Shown one piece after another: positions 6,938-55,909 of a stretch of DNA of 64,000 nt. The stretch is from positions 1-64,000 of the IMG/VR virus record IMGVR_UViG_3300022848_000777. One strand, given 5' to 3'. The position numbers were made by a program, and so were the translations under genes. How positions within the stretch are numbered: position 1 is the stretch's first letter; each line of letters opens with the position of its first letter. This DNA comes from a virus. The notes beneath the pieces were generated by a model that was given only the letters and a program-made list of their open reading frames with translations, was not told where the DNA came from and made no database searches.

Positions 6938-7774
6938 ATGAATAAACCTATAAAAAGTATAAATCAATTAATAAAAGATGAGTACACTAAATGTGCAGCT
7001 GATCCAGTATATTTCTTTAAGAAATATTGTTATATCCAACATCCAACACGTGGGAAGATTTTATTCGATACCTTCGATTTCCAAGATGAAACTTTAGAAG
7101 ATTTTAATAATTTCAGATTTAATGTGATATTAAAATCAAGACAGTTGGGTATATCAACACTAACAGCAGGTTACGCATTATGGTTAATGTTATTTAAAGA
7201 AGATCAAAATATATTGGTTATAGCAACAACTCAAGATGTGGCCAAAAACCTTATCACTAAGGTTAAGTATATGCATGATAACTGCCCTAGTTGGTTGAGG
7301 TTAGATACTGAGGAAGCAAACAAACTATCATTAAGATTTGTAAATGGTTCAACAATTAAAGCCGTATCAAGTACAGGAACAGCGGGTCGATCAGAGGCAC
7401 TATCATTATTGATCATTGATGAGGCTGCATTTATTCAAAAAGTAGATGATATTTGGGCTTCTGCACAATCTACACTTTCCACTGGGGGTAGTGCTATCGT
7501 ACTTTCCACACCAAATGGTGTTGATAACTTCTTTCATAGCACATGGTTAAAATCAGAAGAGGGTGCCGCATGGAATGGAATACGATTGCATTGGACTAGG
7601 CATCCAGAAAGAAATCAAAAATGGAGAGATGAGCAATCCGCATTGCTTGGTGATGCAATGGCAGCTCAGGAATGTGATTGTTTGTGGGGGGAATCTATGG
7701 TTACGGTACGTGATACTGAAACGGAAAATATCATAAACGTATCACTTTCAGATTTGTATAATAATTTATATTAA
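6938..7774 (+). CDS. terL: Terminase large subunit, N-terminal ATPase part fused to a 31-aa split-intein N fragment
   Basis: KSRQLGIST (Walker A), LIIDEAAF (Walker B), STPNG. Ends QECD|CLWGESMVTVRD...LYNNLY*, with intein Cys1 at 7679. Confidence 0.95.
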   Translation: MNKPIKSINQLIKDEYTKCAADPVYFFKKYCYIQHPTRGKILFDTFDFQDETLEDFNNFRFNVILKSRQLGISTLTAGYALWLMLFKEDQNILVIATTQDVAKNLITKVKYMHDNCPSWLRLDTEEANKLSLRFVNGSTIKAVSSTGTAGRSEALSLLIIDEAAFIQKVDDIWASAQSTLSTGGSAIVLSTPNGVDNFFHSTWLKSEEGAAWNGIRLHWTRHPERNQKWRDEQSALLGDAMAAQECDCLWGESMVTVRDTETENIINVSLSDLYNNLY

Positions 7775-7777
7775 TTA

Positions 7778-7785
7778 TACTTATA
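7778..7785 (+). promoter_or_regulatory. Late-type promoter motif TACTTATA before the terL endonuclease
   Basis: Member of the TA(T/C)TTATA family (about 18 intergenic copies). Confidence 0.65.
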
Positions 7786-7808
7786 TACAAGAGTGTGAAT
7801 GTAAACGG

Positions 7809-8552
7809 ATGTTATATATGGGGTATGTAAAAGATGGGTGGGATAAAATTAAAGATGAATTATCAAATATTGATGAGTTTTATACCATTAAGCAAACTAT
7901 ACATTTATTAAATACGGATTATTATTATAAAAATTATTTTGGTAGGGCTAGGAATCGCACTATGATAAAACGTAATCCTAAATTATACAAGTCCATATAT
8001 GAACATACTGATATTTTAGAAACGACATTTAAAAAATATAATAAATACAAAGGTTGGTATAATTTCAAATACCGTATGGTATTTTTAGTTGATAATGGTG
8101 GTGATATTAACACTTTAAAGTGTGAGTGTGGTCGTACATATAATTGGACTAAATATTGTAGATTCTGCCCAAATCCTAAAAAAACATGGTTGGGTAAAAC
8201 ACATACAGATGTAACTAAAAAAATACAACGAATAAGTACTTTACAATACTTATCAAAAACCAATGGTCAATTAACACCTAGATATAATATCAATTCAATA
8301 CCAATCATAGAAGCAAAAGCTAAAGAATTAGGAATAACTGATTTACAGCATGCCGAAAATGGTGGAGAATTCCACATCAAAGATCTTGGTTATTGGGTGG
8401 ATGGTTATAGTAAAGAAAAAAACATAGTAATAGAATATGATGAACGTCATCATTTCAGAAATGATAAGATAAAAGTGAAAGATATTCAAAGACAAAACGA
8501 AATCGAAACCCATCTTAATTGTAAATTTATAAGGATACGTTGTAATGGATAA
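7809..8552 (+). mobile_element. Free-standing homing endonuclease (Vsr/EDxHD-like PD-(D/E)xK fold) inside fractured terL
   Basis: QHAENGGE..VDGY..IVIEYDERHH..D..RQ..I...L.C.FIRI. Lies between the intein halves; paralog of 54188..55015. Confidence 0.85.
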
Positions 8553-9732
8553 TCATATATTAAGACATAATCATAAATATGAAATACTAACACCATCGGG
8601 ATATCAATCATTCGCTGGGATTCGTAAGATCTCTAAAGATGTAATATACACCATTATATTATCTAATAATAAAACAATAAAATGTTCAGATAATCACCCA
8701 TTTATTATTAACACTGATATTATCCATTCCAATAAATTAAAAGTTGGTGATATATTAGATGGTGTTGATGATACCATAATTACGATTGTTGATATTAAGA
8801 AAACGATGGGAACTTTGAATTTATTTGATGTCGTTGATGTTAATGGTGGTAATTTATTTAATGTTGATGGTATAATTTCACATAATTGTGATTTCATCAC
8901 ATCGGGTTATGGTGTTGTCGATGGTTCTATATTGGAGTGGTATAAAGAGAATCATGTTGTAGATCCATTAGAAGAACGTGGTTTCGATGGTAATTATTGG
9001 TTGTGGAAATATCCAGATTATGATAAAAATTACATCGTTGTGGCCGATGTCGCGCGAGGTGATGGTAAGGATTTTTCAACATTCCATGTTTTCGATGTAG
9101 AAACTGTAGAGCAGGTTGCTGAATACAAAGGTAAGATAGAAACAAAACCTTTTGGTGAGATGTTAGTGGCCGTCGCTATTGAGTGGAATAATGCAATGTT
9201 GGTAATAGAAAACGCCAATGTTGGTTGGGCTGCGATACAACCCGCAATCGATAGACATTATGAAAACCTATATTATTCATATAAAGATTTTGGATATGTT
9301 GATGATGAAGTTCATCTACAAAGTGCCTATGATATGGCAGATAAATCCAAAATGGTTCCTGGATTCTCAATGACAACTAGGACACGACCTTTGGTTATAT
9401 CAAAACTTGATACATATATGAGAGAAAAAGTGCCGATAATTCACTCAATTAGACTTATAAATGAATTATTTGTATTTGTTTGGATGGGTTCTAAGGCAAT
9501 TGCTCGTAATGGGCATAATGATGATTTAGTAATGGCATTTTCTACAGCTTTATGGGTGAGGGATACCGCACTTAGACTTAGACAAAAGGGTATTGATTTA
9601 AATAGAAGTGCAATACAACATACTACAAAATCAAATACATTCTATAGTAACACCCAACGAGCTCAATCCGACAAGTACTGGAATATGAATATAGGTGGAA
9701 AGCATAGTGAAAATATAAAATGGTTGCTGTAA
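8545..9732 (+). CDS. terL: Split-intein C fragment (114 aa) plus terminase large subunit nuclease part
   Basis: CSDNHPF (block B) and ISHN|CDFITSG (Asn ends 8886, Cys+1 at 8887), then ADVARGDGKDFS and HNDDLVMA nuclease motifs. Confidence 0.95.
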   Translation: MDNHILRHNHKYEILTPSGYQSFAGIRKISKDVIYTIILSNNKTIKCSDNHPFIINTDIIHSNKLKVGDILDGVDDTIITIVDIKKTMGTLNLFDVVDVNGGNLFNVDGIISHNCDFITSGYGVVDGSILEWYKENHVVDPLEERGFDGNYWLWKYPDYDKNYIVVADVARGDGKDFSTFHVFDVETVEQVAEYKGKIETKPFGEMLVAVAIEWNNAMLVIENANVGWAAIQPAIDRHYENLYYSYKDFGYVDDEVHLQSAYDMADKSKMVPGFSMTTRTRPLVISKLDTYMREKVPIIHSIRLINELFVFVWMGSKAIARNGHNDDLVMAFSTALWVRDTALRLRQKGIDLNRSAIQHTTKSNTFYSNTQRAQSDKYWNMNIGGKHSENIKWLL

Positions 9733-9772
9733 TTATTAGAAATAAAGTATTTATATATAAATAAGATATTAT

Positions 9773-11617
9773 ATGGCAGATAAATCGGTATTCGGGCGAC
9801 TTAAAAAGTTATTTTCAACACAAGTTGTGGTACGACGGACAGGAAAGGATCAACTCAAAGTGGTGGATTCATCCAAAATGCAATCATCTGGTAATAAAAA
9901 TTCATCTGCTTACTATGATAGGTATGGTAGATTGCATGGTTCTAAAAAGAATTGGCAAACATACAATGAGAGATTCAACTACCATTCAAATAGAATAGAA
10001 TTATACAGTGATTATGAAGCTATGGATAAGGATTCAATCATAGCATCTGTTTTAGATATATATTCAGATGAAAGTACACTATATGATACTAATGGTGACA
10101 CATTAGCAATAACATCTCCTAATGAGAAAATTAAGAAATCATTACATAATTTATTCTATGATGTGCTAAACATTGAGTTTAATTTGTGGTCTTGGGTGAG
10201 ATCGATGAATAAGTATGGTGATGCATATCTTTATTTAGATATTAATGAGGAATATGGTGTAGTTAATGTAGAACCGTTATCAGTATATGAAACGTTACGT
10301 GAAGAGGGTTATGATCCAGATAATCCATATTCAGTTAGATTTAAAGTTGAAGGTGGTGAAGAACGATATTATGAGTCATTCCAAGTGGCACATTTTAGAT
10401 TACTAACTGATACAAATTTCCTACCATACGGTCGTGCATTAATAGAGCCAGCTAGAAATGTATGGAAGCAGTTAACACTTATGGAAGATGCTATGTTAAT
10501 TCATCGTATTATGAGAGCTCCAGAAAAACGTGTATTCAAAATTGATGTAGGTAACATACCTCATAATGAAATTGATTCACATATGGAGAATGTTATAAAC
10601 AAAATGAAGAAAACACCATATGTCGATCAAAGGACTGGGGAATATAATTTGAAATTTAACTTACAGAATATGTTAGAAGATTATTATTTAGCAGTTCGTG
10701 GTGGAACAAGTGGTACTGAAATAGATACATTAAGTGGAATGGAATTCGGTGGTATTGATGATATTGAGTACCTAAGAAATAGAATGTTAGCATCACTTAA
10801 AGTTCCAAAAGCATTTATTGGATATGAAGAGGGAGTTGATGGTAAGAGTACATTAGCTCAGCAAGATATTCGTTTCGCACGAACTATTGAAAGAATTCAA
10901 AAGATAATCGTATCTGAATTAACTAAAATCGCAGTAGTTCATTTATATGCACATGGGTATGAAGATGAAGATTTGGTTAATTTTACATTATCATTAAATA
11001 CACCATCTATTGTATATGAGCAAGAGAAAGTTGATTTATTAACACAAAAAGTATCACTAATCAGAGACTTGAAAGAATTACGATTAGTATCACATGAGTA
11101 TATGTACGAAAATATACTGAATATGTCACAAGATGAGTGGCAGCGGGAAGAATTAAAAGTTATCAATGACTTGAAGCTTGAATTCAGACAAGAGCAAATT
11201 GCAAGTGAGGGTAATGACCCAACTAAAACAGGTGAATCGTTTGGAACACCACATGATTTAGCAACCATAAATCAACCATCAGAACCCGCTGATGAAGGTG
11301 GTTCAGAAGAAGGTGGTCAGCCAGGCGCAGGAAGACCTCCCGAATCTGGTAAATTTGGAAAAGACAAAGCGGAACTTGGTAGGGATCCATTAGGTAAAAC
11401 AACCGATGTTAAGCCAGAAAGTGCATATAACAATCCTAGAAAATCACCACTAAGTACTGAGGCTGTTGATAAAATTATTCATAAAATGAAACCAGCATCT
11501 GGTCGTGTAAAAACAAGGAAAGTGATAACTGAATCTTTAAGAATTGTAGATTCCATCGACAAATTTAAAGAAAAGGGGTTACTTGATGAGGATAATATAA
11601 TGGAATTTGAGAAATAG
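9773..11617 (+). CDS. gp20: Portal protein (T4 gp20-like)
   Basis: LMEDAMLIHRIMRAPEKRVFKIDVGN, EDYY, GTEIDTL and LKVPKAF motifs; follows terL. Confidence 0.93.
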   Translation: MADKSVFGRLKKLFSTQVVVRRTGKDQLKVVDSSKMQSSGNKNSSAYYDRYGRLHGSKKNWQTYNERFNYHSNRIELYSDYEAMDKDSIIASVLDIYSDESTLYDTNGDTLAITSPNEKIKKSLHNLFYDVLNIEFNLWSWVRSMNKYGDAYLYLDINEEYGVVNVEPLSVYETLREEGYDPDNPYSVRFKVEGGEERYYESFQVAHFRLLTDTNFLPYGRALIEPARNVWKQLTLMEDAMLIHRIMRAPEKRVFKIDVGNIPHNEIDSHMENVINKMKKTPYVDQRTGEYNLKFNLQNMLEDYYLAVRGGTSGTEIDTLSGMEFGGIDDIEYLRNRMLASLKVPKAFIGYEEGVDGKSTLAQQDIRFARTIERIQKIIVSELTKIAVVHLYAHGYEDEDLVNFTLSLNTPSIVYEQEKVDLLTQKVSLIRDLKELRLVSHEYMYENILNMSQDEWQREELKVINDLKLEFRQEQIASEGNDPTKTGESFGTPHDLATINQPSEPADEGGSEEGGQPGAGRPPESGKFGKDKAELGRDPLGKTTDVKPESAYNNPRKSPLSTEAVDKIIHKMKPASGRVKTRKVITESLRIVDSIDKFKEKGLLDEDNIMEFEK

Positions 11618-11679
11618 TATATTTATATACAGTATATACATAAAGTTATTGTCGATTATAAGTAAAACGGATATTAATA

Positions 11680-12531
11680 ATGAAGAAATTTAAACATAGC
11701 AAGTACAAAAATACGGGTATTCTTTTTCAATTACTTATAAGACAGGTCGTATCGGATACCTTAAATGATAAGCAATCAGCAAAGGCGCTTTCTATTATAA
11801 AGGAACATTTTGGTAAGAAAACTGAATTACTAAAGGAGTATCGATTGTATAAAACGCTAATGGATGAGTCATTTGATTCTGAATCAAAAGCTACTGAATT
11901 TTTATCAATTATTATTGATAAGAGGTCTAAGTTAAATGATAATTTATTATCCAGAGAGAAGTATAATTTGATAAAAGAAATTAAAAAGATTTATCCTATT
12001 AATGAATTTTTTAATTATAGAGTATCTAACTATAAAGAAAACGCATCGGTGTATAAATTATTTGAATATAGTAAATCGGAAAACCCAAAGGAATTTATTG
12101 AAAATAAAGGTACGTTATTAGAGCATATATTACAATCTAATAAAGTAGAAGCTCAATCATTAAATCAGTTGAATGATGATTACAATTCTCAACCAAAAGA
12201 TATTAGACTATTAGCTTGGAAACTTCTTGTTGATGGTTTTAATACTAAATATACTATCTTATCAAAACCACAGAAAACTATATTACGAGAATATATTAAC
12301 GCTGTGGATAATACTGAGTACTTAAAGGAGTATGTTAAAGCTGAATGTACGAAGATTCAGAAAGCTTTTAGTAAATTGGATATAACAGATACTATGGTGA
12401 AAATCAAAGTAACAGAGGTATTGAATTTGGTTGAAAACATTAAGACTTCGAAGAAAATCACCGAATCAGAAATACTTTCAATTCTAAGATATCACGACTT
12501 ATACAAAGAAGTAAAACGGAATTTCAAATGA
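11680..12531 (+). CDS. Head-module protein of unknown function
   Basis: 283-aa helical ORF between portal and protease. Confidence 0.55.
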   Translation: MKKFKHSKYKNTGILFQLLIRQVVSDTLNDKQSAKALSIIKEHFGKKTELLKEYRLYKTLMDESFDSESKATEFLSIIIDKRSKLNDNLLSREKYNLIKEIKKIYPINEFFNYRVSNYKENASVYKLFEYSKSENPKEFIENKGTLLEHILQSNKVEAQSLNQLNDDYNSQPKDIRLLAWKLLVDGFNTKYTILSKPQKTILREYINAVDNTEYLKEYVKAECTKIQKAFSKLDITDTMVKIKVTEVLNLVENIKTSKKITESEILSILRYHDLYKEVKRNFK

Positions 12532-13401: not shown

Positions 13402-13415
13402 TAGGAATTGGAACG

Positions 13416-16183: not shown

Positions 16184-16189
16184 AACATT

Positions 16190-17745: not shown

Positions 17746-17760
17746 ACGGAGAAACAATAA

Positions 17761-24238: not shown

Positions 24239-24547
24239 ATGGCAACAGTAAGTGAATCTACAAATTCAAAACCAGAGCATAAAGCTCAACGATTGGATAA
24301 ATCAGAAATAGATAGTATACATGAATTTGCAAATACTTATTCCGATATTAATAATAAAATGGGTGAGTTTGCAATGAATATGATAATCCTTAATGAAGAA
24401 ATAGAGAATACCAAAACGAATCAAGATCAGTTAGCAGCAAAATATAAACAGGCGAGATCTAGTGAATTGAAGTTCGCAAATGAATTAAAACAAAAATATG
24501 GAGATGGTGAAATTAACATCCAAGATGGTACATTTAAACCAAACTAA
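24239..24547 (+). CDS. Coiled-coil hypothetical protein
   Basis: 102 aa, ending KYGDGEINIQDGTF. Confidence 0.6.
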   Translation: MATVSESTNSKPEHKAQRLDKSEIDSIHEFANTYSDINNKMGEFAMNMIILNEEIENTKTNQDQLAAKYKQARSSELKFANELKQKYGDGEINIQDGTFKPN

Positions 24548-37287: not shown

Positions 37288-37542
37288 ATGGATACTCCAA
37301 TTACAGAAAAAGATCAGCAAGAATTATACGAAAAATACGCCCCAGTTCCATTTCAACGTAGTTATTCCCGAAATTCATTACTTTTATTATTATCATTACC
37401 ATTAGTGTGGAATCCATTCCATCACTGCGAATGGCTTTATTGGAAATATGGTAAGGCTGATCGGTTACATAGAATATGTTGGACGTGTCGTAAGAAAGAA
37501 AAAAAACATCAAGGTGAGTGGGTAAAAGATCCAGTACTATGA
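37288..37542 (+). CDS. Small hypothetical protein
   Basis: First ORF behind the promoter; HxC and CxxC motifs. Confidence 0.5.
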   Translation: MDTPITEKDQQELYEKYAPVPFQRSYSRNSLLLLLSLPLVWNPFHHCEWLYWKYGKADRLHRICWTCRKKEKKHQGEWVKDPVL

Positions 37543-38783
37543 TTAACTATATAATGAGTGGTTCAATATCCACTACAAATGCATTTGTGTATCCATTGTG
37601 GATGAGTGATACTATACACTCAGCAGTAGTTGGGTTATCAATTATATACATATATGATTTGGATTCTGAAAAGGAATATATTATAAATATAAATCATATG
37701 GATTCTGATAAAACTACGTTAAATGATGTTCAGTTGGATATCGACACGGCTTTTATATACAATATGAAATCAGCATTAAACTCAGAACTTAGGTTTAATA
37801 ATATGTATGATGCTGATATGTTGAAGTACTTACAGAAAAACGAAAAGTTGATCGATGAATTTACAACAGCTCATACGTTTTTCCATAGGAAATTTAGAAA
37901 CCTACAATTGATAAATAATTATATACCGATTGTAAAGCATTTAGAATCAATACGTGAATCTTTAGATGATTTTTTGAAATTCTACGAAAATCGAGATGGT
38001 GAATTGTTAGAGAAATTTTCAAAGTATTACTGCAAATCACTGTACGGTGTGGAGTCTAATGGTATTATGACAACAACAGGGTTAGAATATACCCACTACA
38101 ACCCATATACTTTGACATCCAGACCATCAAATACATTTAATGGTACAAACTATGCGGCACTTAAAAAAGATGATGATACCCGTAGTAGATTCATTTCCAG
38201 ATTTGTAGATGGTAAACTGATTCAATTCGATTATGATGCATATCACGTTCGTATTATAGCTGAAATGATAGGGTTTGAATTACCAATCGATCAATCGGCT
38301 CATAAGATTTTGAAAGAATACTATGGTGATGTATCATATGGTGATGCAAAGGGTATCACATTTAGACAATTATACGGTGGCGTTGAAGATAAGTACGCAC
38401 ATATTCCATTCTATCAAAGAATTGAGAATTTCAAAGATATTCTTTGGGATGATTTTCAAAAAAATGGTTATATAGAAACTGAATTAGGTAGAAAAATGAA
38501 AAAAGAATACTATACTGATTTCAATAAGAATAAACTATTCAATTACTTATTACAATCGACTGAGACTGAAAAGAACCTACAGAAAGTTTTAGAAATAAAT
38601 AAACAATTAGAGGATTATAAATCTAAGTTAGTTTTATATACCTACGATTCATACTTATTTGATGTATCACCCGATGAAGCTGGTGTATTATCTAAATTGA
38701 AAATACTTATAGATGAGGGTAATTTCCCCAGTAAGATTGAAATAGGTGAAAATTATTCCAAAATGGAAAGTTTTAATAAATGA
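37518..38783 (+). CDS. Compact family-A DNA polymerase-like protein
   Basis: T.TSRPS, DYDAYHVR (motif A), KGITFRQLYG (motif B), NY.LQS and TYDS (motif C). Likely start 37539. Confidence 0.8.
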   Translation: MGKRSSTMINYIMSGSISTTNAFVYPLWMSDTIHSAVVGLSIIYIYDLDSEKEYIININHMDSDKTTLNDVQLDIDTAFIYNMKSALNSELRFNNMYDADMLKYLQKNEKLIDEFTTAHTFFHRKFRNLQLINNYIPIVKHLESIRESLDDFLKFYENRDGELLEKFSKYYCKSLYGVESNGIMTTTGLEYTHYNPYTLTSRPSNTFNGTNYAALKKDDDTRSRFISRFVDGKLIQFDYDAYHVRIIAEMIGFELPIDQSAHKILKEYYGDVSYGDAKGITFRQLYGGVEDKYAHIPFYQRIENFKDILWDDFQKNGYIETELGRKMKKEYYTDFNKNKLFNYLLQSTETEKNLQKVLEINKQLEDYKSKLVLYTYDSYLFDVSPDEAGVLSKLKILIDEGNFPSKIEIGENYSKMESFNK

Positions 38784-45109: not shown

Positions 45110-46420
45110 ATGGATACATTCGGAAAGAGATTTGGTTCAAGTTTCCAAATAAAAATTCTATCAGCATTATTATCAGATAGGATATTTTTACAGACTATTT
45201 ATGATATTATAAAAGATGATTATTTCGATTCTGATGCAAATCAATGGATTTTAAGTAAAATATTAACCCACTTTGATAAATACAAACAAATACCAACCTT
45301 AGATGTATTTAAAACGGAATCAGATGCACTTAGTTCTGATATTCTAAGACAATCTGTATCAGATAACCTTAGAAATGTATGGGGTGGATTAGAATCCACT
45401 GAGTTAGAATACATAAAAGAGCAATCACTAGAGTTTTGTAAGAATCAGGAAGTTAAAAATGCTATCCTTGAATCGGTAGGTTTGCTTGAGAGTGGTAACT
45501 ACGAAGAAATTCAATCTAAAATAACCGCAGCTATGAAGGCTGGGCAGGATACTGATATCGGGCATGAGTATAATATTAGTATTGATGAACGTTATGCCGA
45601 TAGTGTTAGGAATGTAATTACAACAGGATGGCCTGCAATTGATGAATTAGTAGATGGTGGTTTCGGAAAAGGTGAATTAATTATCTTCGCAGCACCGCCA
45701 GGAATTGGTAAATCATGGGCTCTTATTAATGTGGGTATGGCTGCTGTCAGAGCTGGAAAAACGGTGGTACATTATACTTTAGAGTTAAACGAGGGATATG
45801 TTGGTCAGAGATATGATGCTGTGTTAACTAATATGGCAGTTACTAATTTGAAATATAACATAGATGATGTTAAATCTAGTATTAAAGAATTATCAGGTGA
45901 GCTTATAATAAAATATTGGCCCACAAAATCAGCATCCGTTAATTCCGTAAGGGCATCGGTTGATAAGCTCATATTACAAGGAAAGAAGCCTGATATCATT
46001 ATAGTTGATTATGCAGATTTACTTAAAGGCAATTCGAAGCGAGAGAAGCATGAAGAAATTGAAGAAGTAGTTGAGGAACTTAGAGGTTTGGCAGGGGAGT
46101 ATGAAGTACCATTATATACAGCATCTCAAATAAATCGTTGTCATAATGTAAATGATAACGTGGAAACTCCAACTGGTGATAAAAGGATTGGTGATGTGGA
46201 GATTGGAGACCAAATATTAACACATAAGGGATTTAAGAAAATAACAAATGTATTCCCAATTGAACGACAACCAACCTATCGTATTAAGCTTAAAGATGGT
46301 AGAGAGATAAATGTTTCAGCAGAACATATGATACCAACCCAATACAACAAAATAAAATCCATAGCAGATGGACTTTCAGTAGGTGAGAAATTATTTGTAA
46401 AAAAGAGTGGAAAAAAGTAA
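45110..46420 (+). CDS. gp41: Replicative helicase (gp41/DnaB), N part plus 93-aa split-intein N fragment
   Basis: APPGIGKS, TLEL, VDYADLL, ASQINR|CHNVND. Intein Cys1 at 46139; VSAEH is block B. Confidence 0.95.
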   Translation: MDTFGKRFGSSFQIKILSALLSDRIFLQTIYDIIKDDYFDSDANQWILSKILTHFDKYKQIPTLDVFKTESDALSSDILRQSVSDNLRNVWGGLESTELEYIKEQSLEFCKNQEVKNAILESVGLLESGNYEEIQSKITAAMKAGQDTDIGHEYNISIDERYADSVRNVITTGWPAIDELVDGGFGKGELIIFAAPPGIGKSWALINVGMAAVRAGKTVVHYTLELNEGYVGQRYDAVLTNMAVTNLKYNIDDVKSSIKELSGELIIKYWPTKSASVNSVRASVDKLILQGKKPDIIIVDYADLLKGNSKREKHEEIEEVVEELRGLAGEYEVPLYTASQINRCHNVNDNVETPTGDKRIGDVEIGDQILTHKGFKKITNVFPIERQPTYRIKLKDGREINVSAEHMIPTQYNKIKSIADGLSVGEKLFVKKSGKK

Positions 46421-46440: not shown

Positions 46441-46448
46441 TACTTATA
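46441..46448 (+). promoter_or_regulatory. Late-type promoter motif TACTTATA before the helicase endonuclease
   Basis: Followed by AAAAGGA and ATG 46464. Confidence 0.65.
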
Positions 46449-46463
46449 TAAAAAGGATATAAT

Positions 46464-47555
46464 ATGGCATCAGTAAAGCAAGCTTGGATAACTAGATACG
46501 GAGAAGGGGAAGGTCTTCGTATGTGGGAAATACAAAAAAAGAAATATGGTAAAACACATGATGAATTGAGAACGAAACACGGTAATGATTACGTTGAATC
46601 GTTAGCAAAGAAGAAAAATACATTTTCATTAAAAGGGTGTATTGCCAAATATGGAAAAGTTGATGGTGCTGTTAAGTGGAATGATAGATTAAAAACCAAG
46701 TTAAAAACACAATCTGTTAATTTTAAAAACAAAAAATGGAATAATGGTAGAACCTTAGAATCATATCAACTTAGATACGGGGTAGCGGATGGTTACAGTA
46801 GGTGGGATAAACGGAATAAGCATCAATCCTATATGGCATCAACTCAACGTTATTTGGATGAATTTGGTGAAGATGGGTATGATATAATAAGAAAGATAAA
46901 AGATAACACATCTTTAGAGGCGTATCAAATTCAATACGGTGATGTAGATGGTTTAGTTCATTATAATAAGCACGTTGAACTGATGAAGAACGCATCAAAG
47001 AGGTGTATTGATTATTGGTTAACGTACCATAATGGTGATATTGAGTTAGCAACGCAATCGTTATCAGAGTATCAGAATAATACATCGTTATCATCATTTA
47101 CAAAACGATATGGTAAAGAAGTTGGGTTAGTTAAATATTTAAAATGGGTTGAGGCGGTAACAAAGTATGGATATAAAAGTTATAGTAAGATATCACAGAC
47201 ATTCTGTTGGAATTTGTATGATTCGCTAAATTTATCAATAAATGATACACAATTTTATGAATTAAATAATGAACAATCATTCTACTTTGGTAATAAGTTG
47301 ATTAAGGTTGATTTTAAGTATAAACAAAAGATTATAGAATTCAATGGTGATTATTGGCATGCAAATCCTAATCTGTATAGTGAATCTGATATGATAAAGG
47401 AATATACCGCTAGTGAAATATGGCATCGTGATTCCAATAGAATTGATTTATTAGAAAAAGCTGGTTATGATGTCTTAGTTGTATGGGAATCGGAGTATAA
47501 TGCGAATGGGAGTGATATCATAAACAAATGTAAAAAGTTTTTAGAAAATGAATAA
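46464..47555 (+). mobile_element. Free-standing homing endonuclease (Vsr/EDxHD-like) inside the fractured helicase
   Basis: N-terminal (R/K)YG...G...W repeats. C-terminal VDF...IIEFNGDYWH...D..R......GY.VLVVWESE. Confidence 0.85.
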
Positions 47556-48018
47556 ACATAATTTAAATCCAGATGATTTTGATTTGGTCGAAATTGAGAG
47601 TATTGAGCTAATCGGCGATTCAGATACTATTGATATTACCGTAGAGGATACACATATGTTCTTCGCTAATGGGGTATATAGTCATAATTCAGGCGCAGAT
47701 GATGATATTATTACAGGTACCAAAATAGCAGGTTCATTCTCAAAACTTATGACTGCTGATTTTGTAGTTTCACTGAGTAGAAAAATTGAAGATAAGTTAG
47801 CAGGTACGGGTCGATGGCATGTTATAAAGAACCGTTTCGGGCCCGATGGTACTACATTACCATCCAAAGCTAATATGTCCAGCGGTAAAATAGAGATATT
47901 TTCAGATAATTCAGTTGATGGTCAAAATACAAAAAAAGATATGAAAGAGGGGGAGACTTTTGTTAGACAGAATTTATTTCAAAAGTATAAAGAAATTAAC
48001 AACAAAGTTAACTTTTAA
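47548..48018 (+). CDS. gp41: Split-intein C fragment (47 aa) plus helicase C part
   Basis: IESIE..G..DTIDITV...HMFFANGVYSHN|SGADDD (Asn ends 47688), then TADF and KNRFG motifs. Confidence 0.95.
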   Translation: MNKHNLNPDDFDLVEIESIELIGDSDTIDITVEDTHMFFANGVYSHNSGADDDIITGTKIAGSFSKLMTADFVVSLSRKIEDKLAGTGRWHVIKNRFGPDGTTLPSKANMSSGKIEIFSDNSVDGQNTKKDMKEGETFVRQNLFQKYKEINNKVNF

Positions 48019-48062
48019 TACTTTGAGATGATATTTATTAACACACAATTAAAAGGAAATTT

Positions 48063-50702
48063 ATGAATAACGATAAGATAGATATAGAATCTACACAACC
48101 ACCATTAGAGTATTTTAAGGGTGATGATTTAGCCGCAAATGTATGGTTAGATAAATATGCAGCTGATGGTGAAATAAATCCAGATGCGATGCATAAGAGA
48201 ATGGCCGCTGAGTTCTTTAGGGTTGATGAAATCCATGAGAAATTAGAACGACATCTGGATGTCAGAAGATCTAAGGACTTATCATTATACGGTAGATCAC
48301 GAAATGAATTAACTTTTAATAGTATATATGGTCTTTTTAAAGATTTTAAATACATAGTACCGCAGGGTTCAATTATGGCTACGTTAGGCACCCCTATAAT
48401 TGCTAGTCTTTCTAATTGTTGGGTAACTGAAAGTCCGTATGATTCATATGGTGGTATTTTAAAAACAGATTCAGACCTTGCTTATTACTATAAACGAAGG
48501 GGTGGTGTCGGTGTTGATATTTCAAACCTAAGACCTGAGGGAACACTAACAAAAAATACGGCAAAAGCAACTACAGGTGCAGTTTCATTTATGCATAGAT
48601 TTTCATCAACAACTAGAGAAGTTGCAATGGAAGGTAGGCGTGGTGCATTAATGTTATCAATCTCTATTAACCATCCTGATGTGATGGAGTTTATCAAAAT
48701 TAAGAGAGATGGAACATCCGTAACAGGGGCTAACATTTCAATTAGACTTAATGATAAGTTTATGAAATCGGTTGAGAATGATGAAGATTATATCTTACAA
48801 TTCCCGTGTGATGGTCAGCTAGATTTAGCTACACCAATCGAAACATTAGAGTATGGTAAATTAACTACAATTGATTATGGTGAAGTTGAAGGTGAGGATG
48901 GTGATAATTATTCCTTTAAAGGGTATGTTAAAAGAATAAAAGCAAAAGAATATTGGAATGAGATTATAAATTCAGCAAAGAATCATGCTGAGCCAGGCCT
49001 TATGTATTGGGATACTGTTATCAATAACGATCCAGCAGCGGTATACCCACAATTTACACCAAAGAGCTCAAATCCATGCGGGGAGCAATTCTTAAATCCA
49101 TATGATTCATGTAGGTTGATGGCACTAAATTTACTCAGTTTTGTAAATAAACCATACACCGATGGGGCTGAAATTGATTTTGACAAACTATATGAAGTAT
49201 GTTATGAACATACACGACTTGGTGATGGTCTTGTTGATTTGGAATTAGAATATATACTACGAATTATAGAAAAAATAAAATCTGATCCTGAGCCCGATTA
49301 TATTAAACGTGATGAAATGGAACTTTGGGAAAAATCATACAATAATACTAAAGCAGGTAGGCGAGTTGGATTGGGAATTACCGCATTAGCAGATATGATC
49401 GCAAGTCTAAATTTAGCATATGATTCAGATGATGGTATTGCTATTATCGATAAAGTAATGGCGGCTAAAATGAGAGCAGAACTCGATTGTTCAATTGACC
49501 TTTCAATATTAAGAGAGCCATTTGAAGGGTGGGATAATGAAATGGAATTTCCAACAATAGATGGTGTTATAGTTCCAGGAAATAAGTTTTATAATACTTT
49601 ACTTAATGAATTCCCAGAGCAGGTAGCTAGAATGCAGTTATTTGGACGTAGAAATGTGTCTTGGTCTACAATAGCACCGACAGGAACGGTTAGTTTAATG
49701 ACACAGACCAGTTCGGGATGTGAACCTCTATTTCAACCATATTACATGAGACGTAAGAAGATTAACCCAAGCCAAAAGGGTGTTAGGGTTGATTTTGTAG
49801 ATGATATAGGTGATAGTTGGCAAGAATTTGCGGTGATACATGAACAATTTAGAAAGTGGATTAGAACCTCACATTTCTTCTATGATGATGATGATTTCAA
49901 TAATACTATTAATAAAAAAGGGGTATTAGAGGATTATTTCAAAGCATCCCCTTGGTTTAAATCTACAGCTAATGATATTGATTGGAATAAACGAAATCAA
50001 ATCCAATCAGTTTTACAGAAATACACTACAAACGCAATTTCATCTACTATCAATTTACCCTCAACTGTAACTGAGAGTGAAGTATCTGATATATATTTAT
50101 CTGGCTGGAAATACGGATTGAAAGGACAAACTGTTTATGTGGATGGATCTAGATCTGGCGTTCTCGTATCTAATGATGAGAAGAACCCAAATGGAGTTTT
50201 TAAACAAATGGATGCAATAAAACGGCCTACATCGTTAATGTGTGATGTTCATACAACGACATCTGCTGGAAAGAAATATAATGTGTTTATTGGATTATTA
50301 GATGGTAAGCCATATGAAACATTTATAACATCATTCATCACAACTGAAAATCAACTTGAGTTGAAAAAAATCAAACGAGGTCGTTATGATTTATTAAAAG
50401 ATGATGTTCTAATCTATGAAAGTATTACAATGGATATGACTGATGAGCAAGAAGCAATCACACGATTGGTCAGTACAAATCTAAGACATGGTGTTGATAT
50501 TAAATTTATAGTAGAACAGTTAAATAAAACATCTTCGGAAAATATGTTTACATTTATCAAATCACTATCTCGTGTTTTGAAGAAATATATTCCTGATGGT
50601 TCTAAATCAACTGTAACTTGCAATGATTGTGGATCTGATAATGTTATATTTGAGGAAGGTTGTAATAAGTGCCTTGACTGCGGTTCAAGTAAATGCGGTT
50701 AA
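48063..50702 (+). CDS. nrdJ: Class II (B12-dependent) ribonucleotide reductase
   Basis: SLSNC, GGVG, RRGALM, NPCGEQ, SCRL, TIAPTGT, ISSTINLP; C-terminal CxxC..EGC.KC..CG.SKC; no adjacent nrdB. Confidence 0.92.
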   Translation: MNNDKIDIESTQPPLEYFKGDDLAANVWLDKYAADGEINPDAMHKRMAAEFFRVDEIHEKLERHLDVRRSKDLSLYGRSRNELTFNSIYGLFKDFKYIVPQGSIMATLGTPIIASLSNCWVTESPYDSYGGILKTDSDLAYYYKRRGGVGVDISNLRPEGTLTKNTAKATTGAVSFMHRFSSTTREVAMEGRRGALMLSISINHPDVMEFIKIKRDGTSVTGANISIRLNDKFMKSVENDEDYILQFPCDGQLDLATPIETLEYGKLTTIDYGEVEGEDGDNYSFKGYVKRIKAKEYWNEIINSAKNHAEPGLMYWDTVINNDPAAVYPQFTPKSSNPCGEQFLNPYDSCRLMALNLLSFVNKPYTDGAEIDFDKLYEVCYEHTRLGDGLVDLELEYILRIIEKIKSDPEPDYIKRDEMELWEKSYNNTKAGRRVGLGITALADMIASLNLAYDSDDGIAIIDKVMAAKMRAELDCSIDLSILREPFEGWDNEMEFPTIDGVIVPGNKFYNTLLNEFPEQVARMQLFGRRNVSWSTIAPTGTVSLMTQTSSGCEPLFQPYYMRRKKINPSQKGVRVDFVDDIGDSWQEFAVIHEQFRKWIRTSHFFYDDDDFNNTINKKGVLEDYFKASPWFKSTANDIDWNKRNQIQSVLQKYTTNAISSTINLPSTVTESEVSDIYLSGWKYGLKGQTVYVDGSRSGVLVSNDEKNPNGVFKQMDAIKRPTSLMCDVHTTTSAGKKYNVFIGLLDGKPYETFITSFITTENQLELKKIKRGRYDLLKDDVLIYESITMDMTDEQEAITRLVSTNLRHGVDIKFIVEQLNKTSSENMFTFIKSLSRVLKKYIPDGSKSTVTCNDCGSDNVIFEEGCNKCLDCGSSKCG

Positions 50703-50720
50703 TTTTAAATAAAAAAAGTT

Positions 50721-51149
50721 ATGAATGTAAATATAAAGTTATTAAATTCAGATGCAGTATTACCGACTTATGCAAAATTCGGTGATGCTGGTATGGATAT
50801 GTACGCAACCCATATTATAAAATGGGATAATAATCAAATAACATACGGTACTGGTGTGGCAATGGAAATCCCATCTGGATTCGTTGGTTTGATTTTTCCG
50901 AGATCATCAATACGTAAGATGGATTTACAATTGAGTAATTCAGTTGGTGTTATTGATAGTGGGTATCGTGGTGAAATTCAAGCCACTTTTAACAGAACTT
51001 CGACTGCGTTAGGCACTAATATATATGATATTGGTGATAGGGTAATGCAAATAATTATAGTACCCTATCCGCAAATTGAATTTAACTTAGTAGATGATTT
51101 ATCAAAAACCGAACGTGGATCTGATGGATTTGGTTCAACAGGGGATTAA
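50721..51149 (+). CDS. dut: Trimeric dUTPase
   Basis: DAGMD, PRSS, GVIDSGYRGE and RG.DGFGSTG motifs. Confidence 0.97.
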   Translation: MNVNIKLLNSDAVLPTYAKFGDAGMDMYATHIIKWDNNQITYGTGVAMEIPSGFVGLIFPRSSIRKMDLQLSNSVGVIDSGYRGEIQATFNRTSTALGTNIYDIGDRVMQIIIVPYPQIEFNLVDDLSKTERGSDGFGSTGD

Positions 51150-51151
51150 GA

Positions 51152-51355
51152 ATGGCACTTCGTGGAGAGCAGCATCCTCAACATAAACTAACGGCAAAGC
51201 AAGTAATATCCATTAGAAAGTTGTGGAGAATTGGACATAGGAATCTCAAAGTAATTGCTAGAAACAACGGAGTTACTACTTCTAATATCCGTAGGATTGT
51301 TAGAAACGAGACATGGGTTCATTTGACATTTGGGAAATTTGATGATTATCAATAA
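51152..51355 (+). CDS. Small HTH protein resembling the DNA-binding tail of HNH homing endonucleases
   Basis: RGE.HP..KLT...V..IR......IA...GV....I..IV....W.H pattern. Confidence 0.65.
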   Translation: MALRGEQHPQHKLTAKQVISIRKLWRIGHRNLKVIARNNGVTTSNIRRIVRNETWVHLTFGKFDDYQ

Positions 51356-52152
51356 TGAAAGAAAATAAATTATATGTTGATATTAGCAGGGTGCATATTG
51401 CACCTATTGCTAAATCAATAGCTAAGAGTATTATCATAAAAAAACATTACAGCCACTCATGGACTGCTTGTAGGTATTCATTGGGAATTTATTATAAAAC
51501 AGAAGATGACTCACAATTCGGTGATAGTAAGTTAATTGGGTGTCTTATATATGGATTTCCAGTGGGTTCCAGGGCAGCCACATCTATTTGTGATGGATTG
51601 ACAAAGGATAACGCATTGGAGTTGACCAGATTGTATATAGATGATGGTTACGGTTCTAATATAGAATCATATGCAATGGGTCAGAGTTTTAAATGGTTAA
51701 AAGAACATGATAAGAATATCAAACTACTTTTATCATATGCAGATACGGAGCAAAATCACTTAGGTTCAATCTATCAAGCTACTAATTGGGTATATCAAGG
51801 TACTAATGATATGATAGCACTCATGCCAACTTATGGAATATCATTATCAAACGATCCTTATAATTGGATTCATAGTAGAACTGTATATTCACTTTGGGGT
51901 TCTAGTAACGTAGAACATTTGAAAAAAGAAATTGGTAAACAAGGTCATACCGTATTCTGGAGAAAAATGGAATCACCAAAACATCGGTACATCCAACTGA
52001 TATCACAGAATAAAAAAGAAAAGCGTGAATTGATGAAAAAGTTGAAACATAAAATTTATCCATATCCGAAAAACGCAAGTGATTTTAATAAAGAAATAAC
52101 AACACATACGACATACGAACCTGATTCGGATTTAGAAACTAAATTTTGGTAA
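51355..52152 (+). CDS. Mom-like GNAT-fold DNA modification protein
   Basis: HYSH, ELTRL, N.ES and SYAD..Q.H.G.IYQATNW.Y.G motifs. Confidence 0.75.
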   Translation: MKENKLYVDISRVHIAPIAKSIAKSIIIKKHYSHSWTACRYSLGIYYKTEDDSQFGDSKLIGCLIYGFPVGSRAATSICDGLTKDNALELTRLYIDDGYGSNIESYAMGQSFKWLKEHDKNIKLLLSYADTEQNHLGSIYQATNWVYQGTNDMIALMPTYGISLSNDPYNWIHSRTVYSLWGSSNVEHLKKEIGKQGHTVFWRKMESPKHRYIQLISQNKKEKRELMKKLKHKIYPYPKNASDFNKEITTHTTYEPDSDLETKFW

Positions 52153-52175
52153 TCTCATAAATAATTCGTATATTG
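52146..52175 (+). promoter_or_regulatory. Early/middle-type promoter TTGG-N19-TATATTG
   Basis: Upstream of polB. Confidence 0.75.
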
Positions 52176-52196
52176 TATAAAATAAGCAAATTGTAA

Positions 52197-54149
52197 ATGG
52201 CATATCAGAACGTATTTTATGATAGTGATACTAGAATAATTCATTCATGGGATGATGTTCTTGGTTACGAAACGAGTAAGTATTCACCATATGCATACGT
52301 AAGAGATGGTAATGGTGCGCATACTTCAATATATGGTGATAGGGTTAAGAAAGTAACCTATTGGAAAGATTACAATCCTAATGATCTATTTGAATCTGAT
52401 GTAAATGAAATTACTAGATTTCTAATAGATAAGTATGGGGAATCTGATGAAGTATCTAAAAATCATTGTACACTTACATTTGATATTGAGGTAGAAATGA
52501 ATTCAGGTTTACCCGATACCACTAAAGCTGAAAATGAAGTAACTGCAATAGCATTTCACGATTCTATAACAAATGACAAAGGTGTTTATGTAGTTCATAC
52601 GGGTAAAGAAATTGATAGGAAAATAAAAGGTGCTAATGTAAAATCCTTTAACACTGAGGCTGATATGCTATCTGCATTTTTAAATAAATGGGTAGATATA
52701 TCGCCAACAATAGTGACGGGTTGGAATATTGATTACTTTGATGTTACATATCTTTACAACCGATTGTGTAATGTATTCTCAACGACTGAGGCTAACAGAT
52801 TGTCACCAATTGGTAAAATAAAGTATAATAAATATAGAAAACGTTACCTTATAGCAGGTGTATCTTGTTTAGATTATATGGCATTGTTTAAAAACTTCAC
52901 ATACACAGAACACCCGAATTATAGACTTGATACTATAGCAACTTTAGAGTTAGGTCGTGGTAAGATTGAATATGATGGTAACTTAGATCAATTATTCAGA
53001 GATGATATTGAAAAGTTTATTGAATATAACCTAGTCGATGTTGAGTTGGTTGTTGATTTAGATAAGAAGTTACAGTTTATTGATTTGGCAAGGGCAATAT
53101 GCCACACAGGCCATGTTGCTTATGAGGATTTTCTTTTCTCTTCAAAGTGGTTAGAGGGGGCTATGCTCACATTTCTACGTAGAAGTGGTAGGGTTGCACC
53201 GAATAAACCCAATAGAGTTTCACTAAAGATAAACTCAGGTAAAAAAGGTGAAAATCGAATCTATTTAGAGAATTTACCGAATCTAACACCCCGATCAGGG
53301 AAACTAAAGATTTGGAAATCGAAATCATCTAAGATATCAGTAGAGTATGATGATATTGATTTCTCTACCAATTCATTTATATTGAAGCACCCATTAAAGG
53401 AAACCTTAAAAAAAGAATGGATACTTAAACTTGATTTTGAGGGGGCTTATGTAAAAGAACCAAAACCAGGACTATATAAATGGGTATATGATTTAGATTT
53501 AACATCAATATATCCCTGTATCATTATGACTATTAACATATCACCCGAAACTCAAGTGGGTAATATAACAAATTATTCCACAGAGGCTTATATGCGGCAT
53601 GATATTTCTAAGTTTGAAATAACAGATATTCATGGTAATATATCAGATCCGATGGATAGGGTTGAGTATGATGCATTCATTACAAAGATGAATCTAAGTG
53701 TAGCTGCTAATGGTACATTATACGACCAAAGTAAAGTTGGTATAATTCCTGAAATTTTGAATGTTTGGTTCGACAAGAGAGTTGAATATAAAGATTTGAT
53801 GAAGAAGTTCGGAAAAGCAGGTGATGATGATAAGTATAAATTTTACAATCAACGGCAATCCGTGCAGAAGATTATGCTCAATTCCCTTTATGGTGTACTT
53901 GGTTTGGAGTCATTTAGATTCTATAATGTGAAAAACGCGGAAGCGGTAACACTTACAGGGCAGACTGTAATTAAAACCACTGAGTTAATAGCTAATAATT
54001 ATTATAATAGTGTAACGGGCGATGCTTATGTAATTCAATTAGAAAATGGTGAAACTGTTAGTATGGGTGGTAATCTACCTGTTACGTTAACTAATGGAAT
54101 GATAAAGAAAGTTTCAGAATTAACAGAAGAAGATGATGTTTTATTATAA
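52197..54149 (+). CDS. polB: Family-B DNA polymerase, N part (exonuclease, motifs A and B), ending in a degenerate intein-like segment
   Basis: FDIEV, GWN...FD, YNLVDV, DLTSIYP and KIMLNSLYG motifs. Lacks YxDTDS. Tail 54024-54146 is Hint-like. Confidence 0.95.
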   Translation: MAYQNVFYDSDTRIIHSWDDVLGYETSKYSPYAYVRDGNGAHTSIYGDRVKKVTYWKDYNPNDLFESDVNEITRFLIDKYGESDEVSKNHCTLTFDIEVEMNSGLPDTTKAENEVTAIAFHDSITNDKGVYVVHTGKEIDRKIKGANVKSFNTEADMLSAFLNKWVDISPTIVTGWNIDYFDVTYLYNRLCNVFSTTEANRLSPIGKIKYNKYRKRYLIAGVSCLDYMALFKNFTYTEHPNYRLDTIATLELGRGKIEYDGNLDQLFRDDIEKFIEYNLVDVELVVDLDKKLQFIDLARAICHTGHVAYEDFLFSSKWLEGAMLTFLRRSGRVAPNKPNRVSLKINSGKKGENRIYLENLPNLTPRSGKLKIWKSKSSKISVEYDDIDFSTNSFILKHPLKETLKKEWILKLDFEGAYVKEPKPGLYKWVYDLDLTSIYPCIIMTINISPETQVGNITNYSTEAYMRHDISKFEITDIHGNISDPMDRVEYDAFITKMNLSVAANGTLYDQSKVGIIPEILNVWFDKRVEYKDLMKKFGKAGDDDKYKFYNQRQSVQKIMLNSLYGVLGLESFRFYNVKNAEAVTLTGQTVIKTTELIANNYYNSVTGDAYVIQLENGETVSMGGNLPVTLTNGMIKKVSELTEEDDVLL

Positions 54150-54156
54150 TTAATAC

Positions 54157-54164
54157 TACTTATA
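54157..54164 (+). promoter_or_regulatory. Late-type promoter motif TACTTATA before the polB endonuclease
   Basis: Followed by CGGGGG and ATG 54188. Confidence 0.65.
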
Positions 54165-54187
54165 TATAGAAACGGGGGTATCAACGT

Positions 54188-55015
54188 ATGATTGAATGTA
54201 AAATATGTAATAAGAAGTATAACACCATCACAGCAACTCATTTAAAGACACATGGTATTAGTATGGCAGATTATCGAACTAAATTTCCCAATGTACCAAT
54301 CCAATCAGATGGGATGATTCAGAGGGGAGTTCACTCATTAGAAAATATGATACGAAGGCATGGTGATGTTCAAGGTAATATTAGATGGGAAGATTATAAA
54401 CAAAAACAGGCGTATACGAATACATTTGAATACAAACGTGATATTTGTGGTTGGGATGAGGATCAGTTCAATGCGTATAATAAAAAGAGAGGTAGTTTTG
54501 GTGAGTTGAATGGTAATCATGGGTCATCGTATTATCAGATTTGGATTGAAAAGTATGGTAGAGATGTGGCAGATGATATGAATTTTCAGTTATCTAAACG
54601 TAAAGCTAGACATGGTGAAGATAATGGTAACTATAAGAGATCAAAAAGACCTGATGAACTGAAACGAATGAGTGTATCTGCAATAGAGCGTGTAAAACGT
54701 AATGGGATGCCACATTCATATAATCCAAATTCAATTCCAATTATAGAACGGTATGGGTTGGATAATGGATATACATTTCAGCATGCTGAAAATGGTGGTG
54801 AGTATCAAATACCAGATAATACGTTTTTTGTAGATGGGTATGATAGATCAAATAATGTAGTGATTGAATATGATGAACAACGACATTTTAGAAACGGAGA
54901 ATTGCATCCAAAAGATATATGGAGAATGAACTTGATTATATCGAAATTAAAGTGTGTGTTTGTAAGAATCGATTATAAGGGCAATATAACAAAATATGAA
55001 AATAAAAACAATTAA
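54188..55015 (+). mobile_element. Free-standing homing endonuclease (Vsr/EDxHD-like) inside fractured polB
   Basis: N-terminal CxxC...HL..H zinc finger. C-terminal QHAENGGE..VDGYD..VVIEYDE..H; paralog of 7809..8552. Confidence 0.85.
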
Positions 55016-55909
55016 AAAAACAAACGTCGGCGTAGATTACAACATCTACGTCGACACGTAACTGATTCAGTATTTTATGAAGCAGCTCCATTGGTTAAGG
55101 CTAGAAATCCTAAAATCGATGTTAATTCTGATGAAGAAATGATACCTGCCATTCTTAGTGTTGCAAAAGAAGTGCAAGATCACATCAATAAAACATATGA
55201 TGTGATGGCTAAATCCATGTTTAATACCAGTAACCATAGATTTGACATAAAGCAAGAAACAATCGCAAAGGGTGGATTTTGGGTATCTAAAAAACGATAC
55301 GCTCAGTGGATTATAAATGATAACTCTGTTAATTGTGATAAGTTGGATGTAAAGGGGTTAGATGTAAAACGAAGTTCATTTCCTGTATACTTTAAGGAAG
55401 TGATGTCTGAAATATTATGGTCTATTCTAAAAGATGATGCGAAATTGAACATCGATAAAAAGATATTAGATTATAAAGATGGTATGGAAAATTACTACTA
55501 TGTTGATATTGCAAAGAATTCAGCAATTACGGATATGAGTAAGCATTTATTTAAAAACCAAGCTCTTGGTGAGTTTCAAAAGGGAACACCCGCTCACGTT
55601 AAAGCAGCAATAACTTATAATCAATTATTAAAAAAGTTCAATACTGCTTTTAAATACGAACCAATTAAAGATGGTGATAAGGTTAAATGGGTGTATTTAA
55701 AGAATAATCCATTGGGATTGAATGGGGTTGCATTGAATGGGTATAATGATCCTGATGAAATAATTGAGTTCATTAAAACCTACATAGATTTCGAATTAAT
55801 TTGGGAAAAAGAACTTCAAAATAAATTAGATGATTTCTATGATGCAATGAAATGGGATTTACCAAACCCAAACTTAGATAAAGCAGCAGAGTTTTTCGAC
55901 TTTAATTAG
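54996..55909 (+). CDS. polB: Family-B DNA polymerase, C part (motif C, thumb), with a 5-nt frame break inside YVDTDS
   Basis: ATG 54996 gives MKIKTIKKTNVGVDYNIYVDT* (TAA 55059-61). The other frame from 55061 gives TDSVFYEAAPL...KKRYA...KGLD..RSS. The ORF-track start at 55091 omits the catalytic motif. Confidence 0.85.

Follow-up and report, generated by a model that had tools for sequence, protein, structure and literature searches.

Three split genes in a T4-like phage genome

The analysed window comprised the first 64 kb of IMG/VR record IMGVR_UViG_3300022848_000777, a phage sequence of 174,750 bp (32.7% G+C; CheckV completeness 90%) whose replication and packaging genes are T4-like (RecA/UvsX, 5'-3' exonuclease, DnaB/gp41 helicase, ribonucleotide reductase, dUTPase, PolB and TerL). 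Three genes in the window, terL, the helicase gene and the DNA polymerase gene polB, were each present as two open reading frames (ORFs) on the same strand with a free-standing endonuclease gene between them; all parts of the three loci lie on the plus strand. The order at each locus was an N-terminal ORF ending in a tail foreign to the host gene plus a stop, a promoter-like motif, the endonuclease ORF, and a downstream ATG overlapping the endonuclease end. An earlier note on this DNA, here called the original prediction, had described this fractured-gene layout, and both the layout and its positions for the N-half ends, motifs, endonuclease ORFs and downstream ATGs held at all three loci. On balance, we think it probable that a mobile element centred on a free-standing homing endonuclease gene of the PD-(D/E)xK fold entered each of the three genes, and that the break in polB is read by a +5 ribosomal hop. 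The shared design is real, and three such cassettes within one genome are uncommon; the terL and helicase loci represent known biology.

The upstream polB ORF (52197-54149) encoded a 608-aa N part with the exonuclease domain and palm motifs A and B (52197-54020; Pfam), ran to ...NSVTG and then continued into a 42-aa non-polymerase tail plus stop, the C-terminal extension (CTE; 54021-54149). Relatives, here and below the nearest ~80 per gene (78 for terL and 79 for helicase, from IMG/VR, and 80 for polB), matched residues 1-603 to 1-609 only. The endonuclease gene, E_pol (275 aa), followed at 54188-55015. The ATG at 54996 opened MKIKTIKKTNVGVDYNIYVDT only, a 21-codon ORF (54996-55058) consisting of an N-terminal extension (NTE; MKIKTIKKTN) and a replacement polB segment (VGVDYNIYVDT), which ended at TAA (55059-55061). 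The sequence TDSVFY... resumed in the +2 frame from 55061 (ACG TAA|CT GAT), and the polB C part, which begins at DSVFY... with the second Asp of motif C, includes the thumb and runs to its stop, occupied 55064-55909 (Pfam DNA_pol_B). The break lies inside the motif YxDTDS, and removing TAACT gives exact YVDTDS. About 70 of the 80 polB relatives were uninterrupted (...TGEDKDYNIYVDTDSVFY) and read ...TG-EDK-DYNIYVDTDSVFY. We refer to the ACG at 55056-58 as the candidate take-off codon, to the ACT at 55061-63 as the candidate landing codon, and to 55059-55063 as the 5-nt coding gap (whole site, 55056-55063). A 12-bp hairpin with a 6-nt loop (55026-55055; arms 55026-55037 and 55044-55055) abuts the take-off codon. 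The whole genome contained one polB copy; a second was searched for and none was found.

The C-half ATGs at 8545 (terL), 47548 (helicase) and 54996 (polB) overlap the endonuclease ends by 8, 8 and 20 nt, as had been claimed, but the polB C half is not the single ORF envisaged, since this ATG opens 21 codons only. Because its frame breaks 21 codons in, the polB C half is not simply coupled to the endonuclease.

Functional split-intein halves were not found at the polB break, where the flanking pieces carry no intein catalytic residue (the tail has no nucleophile and the 10-aa NTE no HN). The CTE is conserved, with the motif ..LENG..N....L.NG..KKVSELTExDDVLI kept across deep lineages, and weakly resembles the second half of an N-terminal intein fragment (IntN). 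In four alleles it matched positions 48-92 of Pfam Intein_splicing below threshold (E 0.0025-0.05), a stretch that is also matched by the helicase IntN and the C-terminal intein fragment (IntC) of terL, and hhalign aligned it, with weak scores, to the block B strand of each of the two real inteins. The CTE is probably a decayed second half of an IntN whose catalytic parts are gone. The three intein states originally proposed held roughly: the atypical split in terL and the conventional split in the helicase gene stood, whereas the non-splicing remnant in polB, with sub-threshold matches, is weaker.

Conservation, covariation and selection at the polB break

Gapped polB alleles were collected by pattern scans of IMG/VR and JGI metagenomes, with TRR+NN permitted at the insert, and from contigs reached via endonuclease homologues; the same scan of a genome contigs collection gave no match. 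Seventeen distinct gapped alleles were obtained from independent metagenome samples (15 with a 5-nt and two with a 6-nt insert), with synonymous variation around the break. In all 17, the stop lay directly 3' of the Thr take-off codon. Every hit of the scan read T[AG]A-C-N, so that a Thr codon (ACT, ACG, ACA or ACC) always arises from the final base of the stop together with the two bases after it. The landing codon was ACN in 14 of the 15 five-nt alleles, with all four third bases occurring at saturated dS, and among the gapped alleles the third base of the take-off codon and the choice of TAA or TGA varied freely. The take-off codon was the rare ACG in 12/17 gapped alleles vs 8/44 uninterrupted alleles (Fisher p 1.9e-4); ACG makes up 8% of Thr codons genome-wide. 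The phage encodes a tRNA-Thr(UGU) (C1:133902-133976), the single one in a group of 27 tRNA genes beyond the window (G000:C1:130937-139810). A predicted tmRNA (C1:137241-137635; tag peptide DEKSDFTFEDAMSFVGGEFALAA) lies in the same cluster.

The 3' arm of the hairpin, the 12 nt that lead up to the take-off codon (codons I/V-Y-x-D), paired with 12 nt upstream in every gapped allele. Over the 17 alleles, 199 of 204 cells were paired, compensatory double changes were seen at 6 of the 12 positions, and G.U pairs occurred in the sense orientation only; these pairs were counted in our own register, as MAFFT alignment A2 of the junctions did not keep the 5' arms of short-loop and long-loop alleles together. 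When the arms of the first 13 alleles (153/156 cells paired) were shuffled, none of 5000 shuffles reached the observed pairing. The hairpin of the window folds at -20.2 kcal/mol (z -4.8), and it was absent from 38 uninterrupted alleles and from L268, an allele that is split and ungapped. A 4-bp mini-hairpin over the landing codon (ACUG/CAGU) was also considered and dropped, having been found in ~4 of 11 alleles without covariation.

Downstream of the gap, the gapped alleles were under strong purifying selection, with a dN/dS of 0.06 at dS 0.46 and of 0.07-0.12 for deeper pairs, a sign that the broken polB is still used. In two alleles (L099 and L101) the endonuclease gene was lost and the split, start, hairpin and gap were retained, which weakens the proposal that coupling of the C half to the endonuclease penalises loss of the latter. 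L268 (JGI Ga0645785_00121, a 301-kb contig) serves as a natural ungapped control allele. Its polB halves are parted by four genes (L268:28-5474; a 247-aa gene, a DprA-like gene, a DUF559 nuclease and an E_pol homologue), and its C half is contiguous (MRIKKIRK..NIYIDTDSVFF), with no coding gap. As judged from its sequence, the C half of L268 shows what the intended product of the gapped alleles would be.

Proposed decoding of the polB gap

The T4 MobA/gene 60 bypass element was reportedly described by Bonocora et al. in 2011, and T4 gene 60 is, to our knowledge, the one well-studied natural phage example of programmed ribosomal bypassing. The polB locus is like this system (bioRxiv 10.1101/2022.08.31.505936) piece by piece: a split essential gene, an in-frame CTE (~44 aa in the MobA system), an endonuclease overlapping both neighbours out of frame, an NTE, an element-borne copy of a host segment, and then a stop-led gap with a matching landing codon. 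Both systems also have endonuclease-less lineages in which the gap is kept, here L099 and L101. Because of this match, the 5 nt were interpreted as a coding gap that the ribosome passes by a +5 hop. The features by which bypassing is recognised were present, namely a stop 3' of the take-off codon, a landing codon that adjoins the resume codon and is cognate to the take-off tRNA, and a conserved mRNA structure linked to the gap. The likeness is one of architecture alone, with no sequence similarity: the gene is polB and not a topoisomerase gene, the nuclease is PD-(D/E)xK and not HNH, the gap is 5 and not 50 nt, and the hairpin sits entirely upstream of the take-off codon. The gene 60 cassette has been called unique (bioRxiv 10.1101/2022.08.31.505936). 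We lean towards regarding the polB cassette as a second, independently evolved element uniting a homing endonuclease with translational bypass, in which a hairpin-assisted +5 hop crosses an insert that immunises against the endonuclease and lies among the most conserved catalytic codons of a replicative polymerase, and which has spread through a whole aquatic T4-like phage lineage.

The 5-nt insert is best read as being crossed by a programmed +5 ribosomal hop, and we infer that the element would work as follows. Without a working intein, it would add to polB the CTE, the endonuclease gene, the NTE with an 11-residue polB copy up to YVDT, and the TAACT insert. A ribosome on the 21-codon ORF would pause when peptidyl-tRNA-Thr sits on ACG and the A site holds TAA; the 12-bp hairpin, refolding just behind the ribosome, would help to draw the mRNA forward; and the tRNA would re-pair with ACT 5 nt downstream, decoding restarting at GAT. 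The product would be a single C-half polypeptide with YVDTDS intact, spanning ...NIYVDT-DSVFYEAAPLVK, with the junction peptide ...NIYVDTDSVFYEAAPLVK. For gene 60, it has been proposed that mRNA pairing on ribosome exit drives bypassing forward (bioRxiv 10.1101/2024.12.09.627546), and short stop-hops are known from synthetic constructs, with natural ones long expected (PMC5009743). By analogy with T4 MobA/gene 60, the 5-nt insert would shield the phage's own polB from E_pol. The two polB halves would act as a non-covalent two-subunit polymerase, perhaps held together by their extensions; the acidic CTE and the basic MKIKxIKK head of the C half suggest that the two may form a clasp. A complex prediction of the CTE (alignment A4) with the first 40 residues of the ungapped L268 C half scored 0.21, against a mark of 0.32.

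The main rival to the +5 hop is a stop and restart yielding a three-piece polymerase, in which termination after ...YVDT and immediate reinitiation would give a free 21-34-aa peptide and a C part starting at (M)TDS or MDS, and the hairpin would serve coupling or mRNA processing with no hopping. A number of observations weigh against the hop, and those on the start codons are what a restart would use. All eight TGA alleles form an overlapping start codon (GTG, TTG or ATG, as NTGA), and two alleles (L078 and L266) have a 6-nt insert of stop plus ATG, so that termination-reinitiation is available in 10 of the 17 alleles; these ten keep the hairpin too. One five-nt allele, L272, has a GTG and then ATA at the landing position, again with the hairpin kept, and in several take-off and landing pairs the third base is not the same (ACG to ACT or ACC). 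As the gapped alleles share ancestry, they do not count as independent events. The phage is uncultured, and DNA and protein searches of an isolate phage collection returned no close relative (the best match to the polB C part there was Microcystis phage Mel-JY01, 48%). The intein origin of the CTE rests on the sub-threshold matches given above, and we know of no demonstration of a natural short hop of useful efficiency. Nevertheless, a restart is not available to the window allele and six other five-nt TAA alleles, which read GTA, CTA or TTA where the TGA alleles have their start codon and have no other start before TDS (in the polC frame of the window allele, no ATG, GTG or TTG precedes TDS). 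It would also place the two Asp of the catalytic DTD on separate chains, while the ungapped L268 has NTE, strand and DTDS as one chain, and it gives no reason for the near-invariant AC at the landing codon. We judge a restart in place of the hop unlikely, and hop and termination-reinitiation may coexist across the polB family.

If the ribosome instead shifted frame here by +2 in the A site or by -1, the result would be ...DT-T-DS or ...DT-VT-DS in place of an exact DTDS. As the two frames differ by +2/-1, a +5 hop in the P site and a +2 event in the A site look the same in the sequence. There is, however, no slippery heptamer, ACG cannot re-pair at -1 (CAC), and an added residue in DTD would disturb the metal-binding turn; the conserved Thr landing codon better fits re-pairing of the same tRNA. 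We regard a frameshift of this kind as a still weaker candidate than a restart. Two other candidates were set aside. At the A-run at 55014-55019, a -1 slip leads into a frame that holds the endonuclease stop and non-polymerase sequence, and for excision of the 5 nt by RNA-level cutting and religation there was no fitting known bacterial mechanism or symmetric structure.

It seems very improbable that the polB C part is decaying as a pseudogene or that its break is an assembly error, with replication by a host enzyme or another polymerase. The gene is formally broken, and a 421-aa ORF in the window (37518-38783) matched the C-terminal part of DNA_pol_A below threshold (E 5.8e-5; 22.6 bits vs a cut-off of 34.3), but the same break recurs in 17 alleles of independent samples amid synonymous variation, dN/dS is 0.06-0.12, and the genome has no second polB. 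Least credible of all is that polB is the third of three equivalent fractured genes, its C half a single coupled ORF with a dead intein as clasp and no recoding: the three loci do have a common layout with ATGs overlapping the endonuclease ends, but the polB ATG ORF stops after 21 codons and endonuclease-less alleles exist.

Companion cassettes, known systems and implications

At the terL locus, the upstream ORF (6938-7774) comprised a 247-aa N-extein (6938-7678; Terminase_6N, Pfam E 4e-15) and a 31-aa IntN plus stop (7679-7774; from Cys1, CLWGES...), an atypically short N fragment without block B. The endonuclease gene, E_terL (247 aa; 7809-8552), was followed by a 114-aa IntC (8545-8886), whose ATG overlaps the endonuclease stop (ATGGATAA) and which carries SDNH as block B and ends in HN with a +1 Cys, and by the C-extein (8887-9732). 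Presumably, this split (IntN 31 aa, IntC 114 aa) belongs to the atypically split terminase inteins of the AceL-TerL/GOS-TerL type. The IntC matched the consensus atypical split intein 6dsl_B (E 4.9e-17), and next to the Cat consensus intein (PDB 6dsl) the terL split is a new sequence member only. Conceptual splicing gave an 80-residue junction peptide (MAAQECD|CDFI) that aligned without gaps to uninterrupted relatives, the intact gene reading QECDCDFI.

The gp41/DnaB-type helicase gene had an upstream ORF (45110-46420) with a 343-aa N-extein (45110-46138; DnaB_C E 9.9e-22) and a 93-aa IntN plus stop (46139-46420; CHNVND..., with Cys1 and block B SAEH). It was followed by E_hel (363 aa; 46464-47555), with a Vsr/DUF559-like C-terminus (IEFNGDYWHANP), by a 47-aa IntC (47548-47688) with an HN end and +1 Ser, whose ATG overlaps the endonuclease stop (ATGAATAA), and by the C-extein (47689-48018). 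The IntN matched the gp41-1 intein 6qaz_A (E 1.7e-17; 84 residues aligned), and the helicase intein is a diverged member that shares the conventional split point, Cys1 and +1 Ser with the gp41-1 split intein (PDB 6qaz/6riz). The 80-residue conceptual junction peptide (ASQINR|SGADDD) was gap-free against uninterrupted relatives. Cys1, block B, a terminal HN and a +1 Cys, Ser or Thr were thus all found in the terL and helicase split inteins. Both loci have the sequence features of classical fractured genes, whose halves would be ligated by protein trans-splicing into a normal enzyme. Given the different split points (31+114 aa vs 93+47 aa), non-cognate fragments of the two inteins would be non-complementary. 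None of the 78 terL and none of the 79 helicase relatives in IMG/VR carried the insert; therefore, these two cassettes were acquired by this genome and not inherited with the lineage, and they are unusual only in this absence from the ~80 nearest relatives per gene.

E_pol has an N-terminal Cys/His finger and a C-terminal domain of PD-(D/E)xK fold, as assigned by a structure model and fold search (pLDDT 77 overall and 81-94 in the nuclease domain; fold at residues 174-275). This domain has a paralogue in the C-terminal nuclease domain of E_terL (49% identity over 106 aa), and the N-termini of the two differ. The fold match was modest (Z 6.3 to Vsr, 1cw0, and Z 5.9 to I-Bth0305I, 3r3p), among many similar PD-(D/E)xK nucleases, and Foldseek gave weak PD-(D/E)xK rows alone, all with E > 0.009. 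Sequence searches of PDB with E_pol, as a single sequence or as a profile of 18 homologues, and with E_hel returned nothing useful, and neither E_pol nor E_terL had a sequence-level match to 3r3p. E_hel matched phrog_22677 (E 2.6e-20) and, below threshold, DUF559 and MTES_1575. The I-Bth0305I/EDxHD family, first seen in fractured genes, combines a C-terminal Vsr-like nuclease domain with N-terminal modular DNA-binding motifs (NUMOD) (PMC3239194). With the Vsr and I-Bth0305I scores among many similar rows, membership of E_pol in this family is no more than plausible. All six E_pol homologues whose contigs were read lay between polB halves, and an E_terL homologue (P0072) lay inside a split terL; the endonuclease lineages are target-specific.

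Two further free-standing endonuclease genes, of Vsr/DUF559-like and EYDE type, were seen at C1:161038-161859 and C1:165225-166049 (L105:2539-3360 and 6726-7550), between structural and primase-like genes and with no gene split; TACTTATAT lies ahead of the second. In the window, just downstream of a PD-(D/E)xK nuclease gene (60642-61625), 20 residues of an EYDE-type nuclease domain survive (61659-61718) with 70% identity to residues 224-243 of E_terL, probably as the trace of an endonuclease gene that has decayed.

The motif TACTTATA had been noted between the N-half stop and the endonuclease ATG at 7778, 46441 and 54157 as part of the shared cassette design. It is there, with TACTTATA(T) 4-21 nt past the N-half stop at the three loci (the terL and helicase copies, TACTTATAT, at 7778-7786 and 46441-46449; the polB copy at 54157-54165), but it does not mark the cassettes, because it precedes ordinary genes as well (at 24239 and 62690). 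There were 13 copies of the motif in the window, with 6.6 expected. The 9-mer TACTTATAT had 12 copies genome-wide, eight of them intergenic (binomial p 2e-4 vs 17.5% intergenic sequence); seven lay within 60 nt upstream of a gene start, of which four were ahead of endonuclease genes. We regard it as a promoter-like element of general occurrence. In the polB elements of other phages, a similar motif plus GGGGG is kept ahead of the endonuclease, and it therefore travels with the element. Translation-attenuating hairpins upstream of the endonuclease start are a reported feature of fractured genes (Dassa 2009, PMC2677866); 5' of the three endonuclease starts here, folding energies did not differ from those of shuffles (z -1.2, -1.0 and 0.0). 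Among the neighbours of polB, a Mom-family gene (51355-52152; E 4.8e-45) lies directly upstream; downstream is a DruA-like gene (56676-57887; Druantia protein family, E 5.4e-22), which relatives L266 and L268 carry beside polB as well.

Fractured genes, in which two same-strand ORFs of a host gene bear split-intein halves, were described at 26 loci, among them that of the gp41 helicase and that of a myovirus terminase whose IntC is unusually long; the free-standing endonuclease gene between the halves is of GIY-YIG or Vsr-like type, and its 3' end overlaps the downstream start by 6-69 bp (Dassa 2009, PMC2677866). PolB is not in that list of host genes, and split gp43 is cited there as prior work of others (PMC2677866). 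Here, in contrast, three loci occur in one near-complete genome, and the polB case has no functional intein. In the split gp43 of Aeromonas phages, a T4-type PolB is made as two cistrons, with an intervening insert able to hold a free-standing endonuclease gene. Petrov and Karam reportedly found that the two cistrons (43A/43B) of phages 25 and 44RR give a two-subunit complex with no splicing, and we know of no coding gap, hairpin or intein-like tails in these phages. The polB cassette is a new variant that unites the fractured-gene design with that of an endonuclease plus bypass.

Overall, the terL and helicase loci enlarge split-intein families that are already in use as protein-ligation tools, and they indicate that one phage can hold several split-intein elements simultaneously. 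The polB family provides 17 natural alleles in which a minimal 5-nt gap goes with a simple covarying hairpin, together with variants that have no endonuclease, no gap, or a stop plus ATG. This allele series, which lends itself to comparative and mutational use, bears on refolding of mRNA behind the ribosome as a forward driver of bypassing, on the joint travel of homing endonucleases and bypass sequences, and on the tolerance of an essential enzyme to being split.

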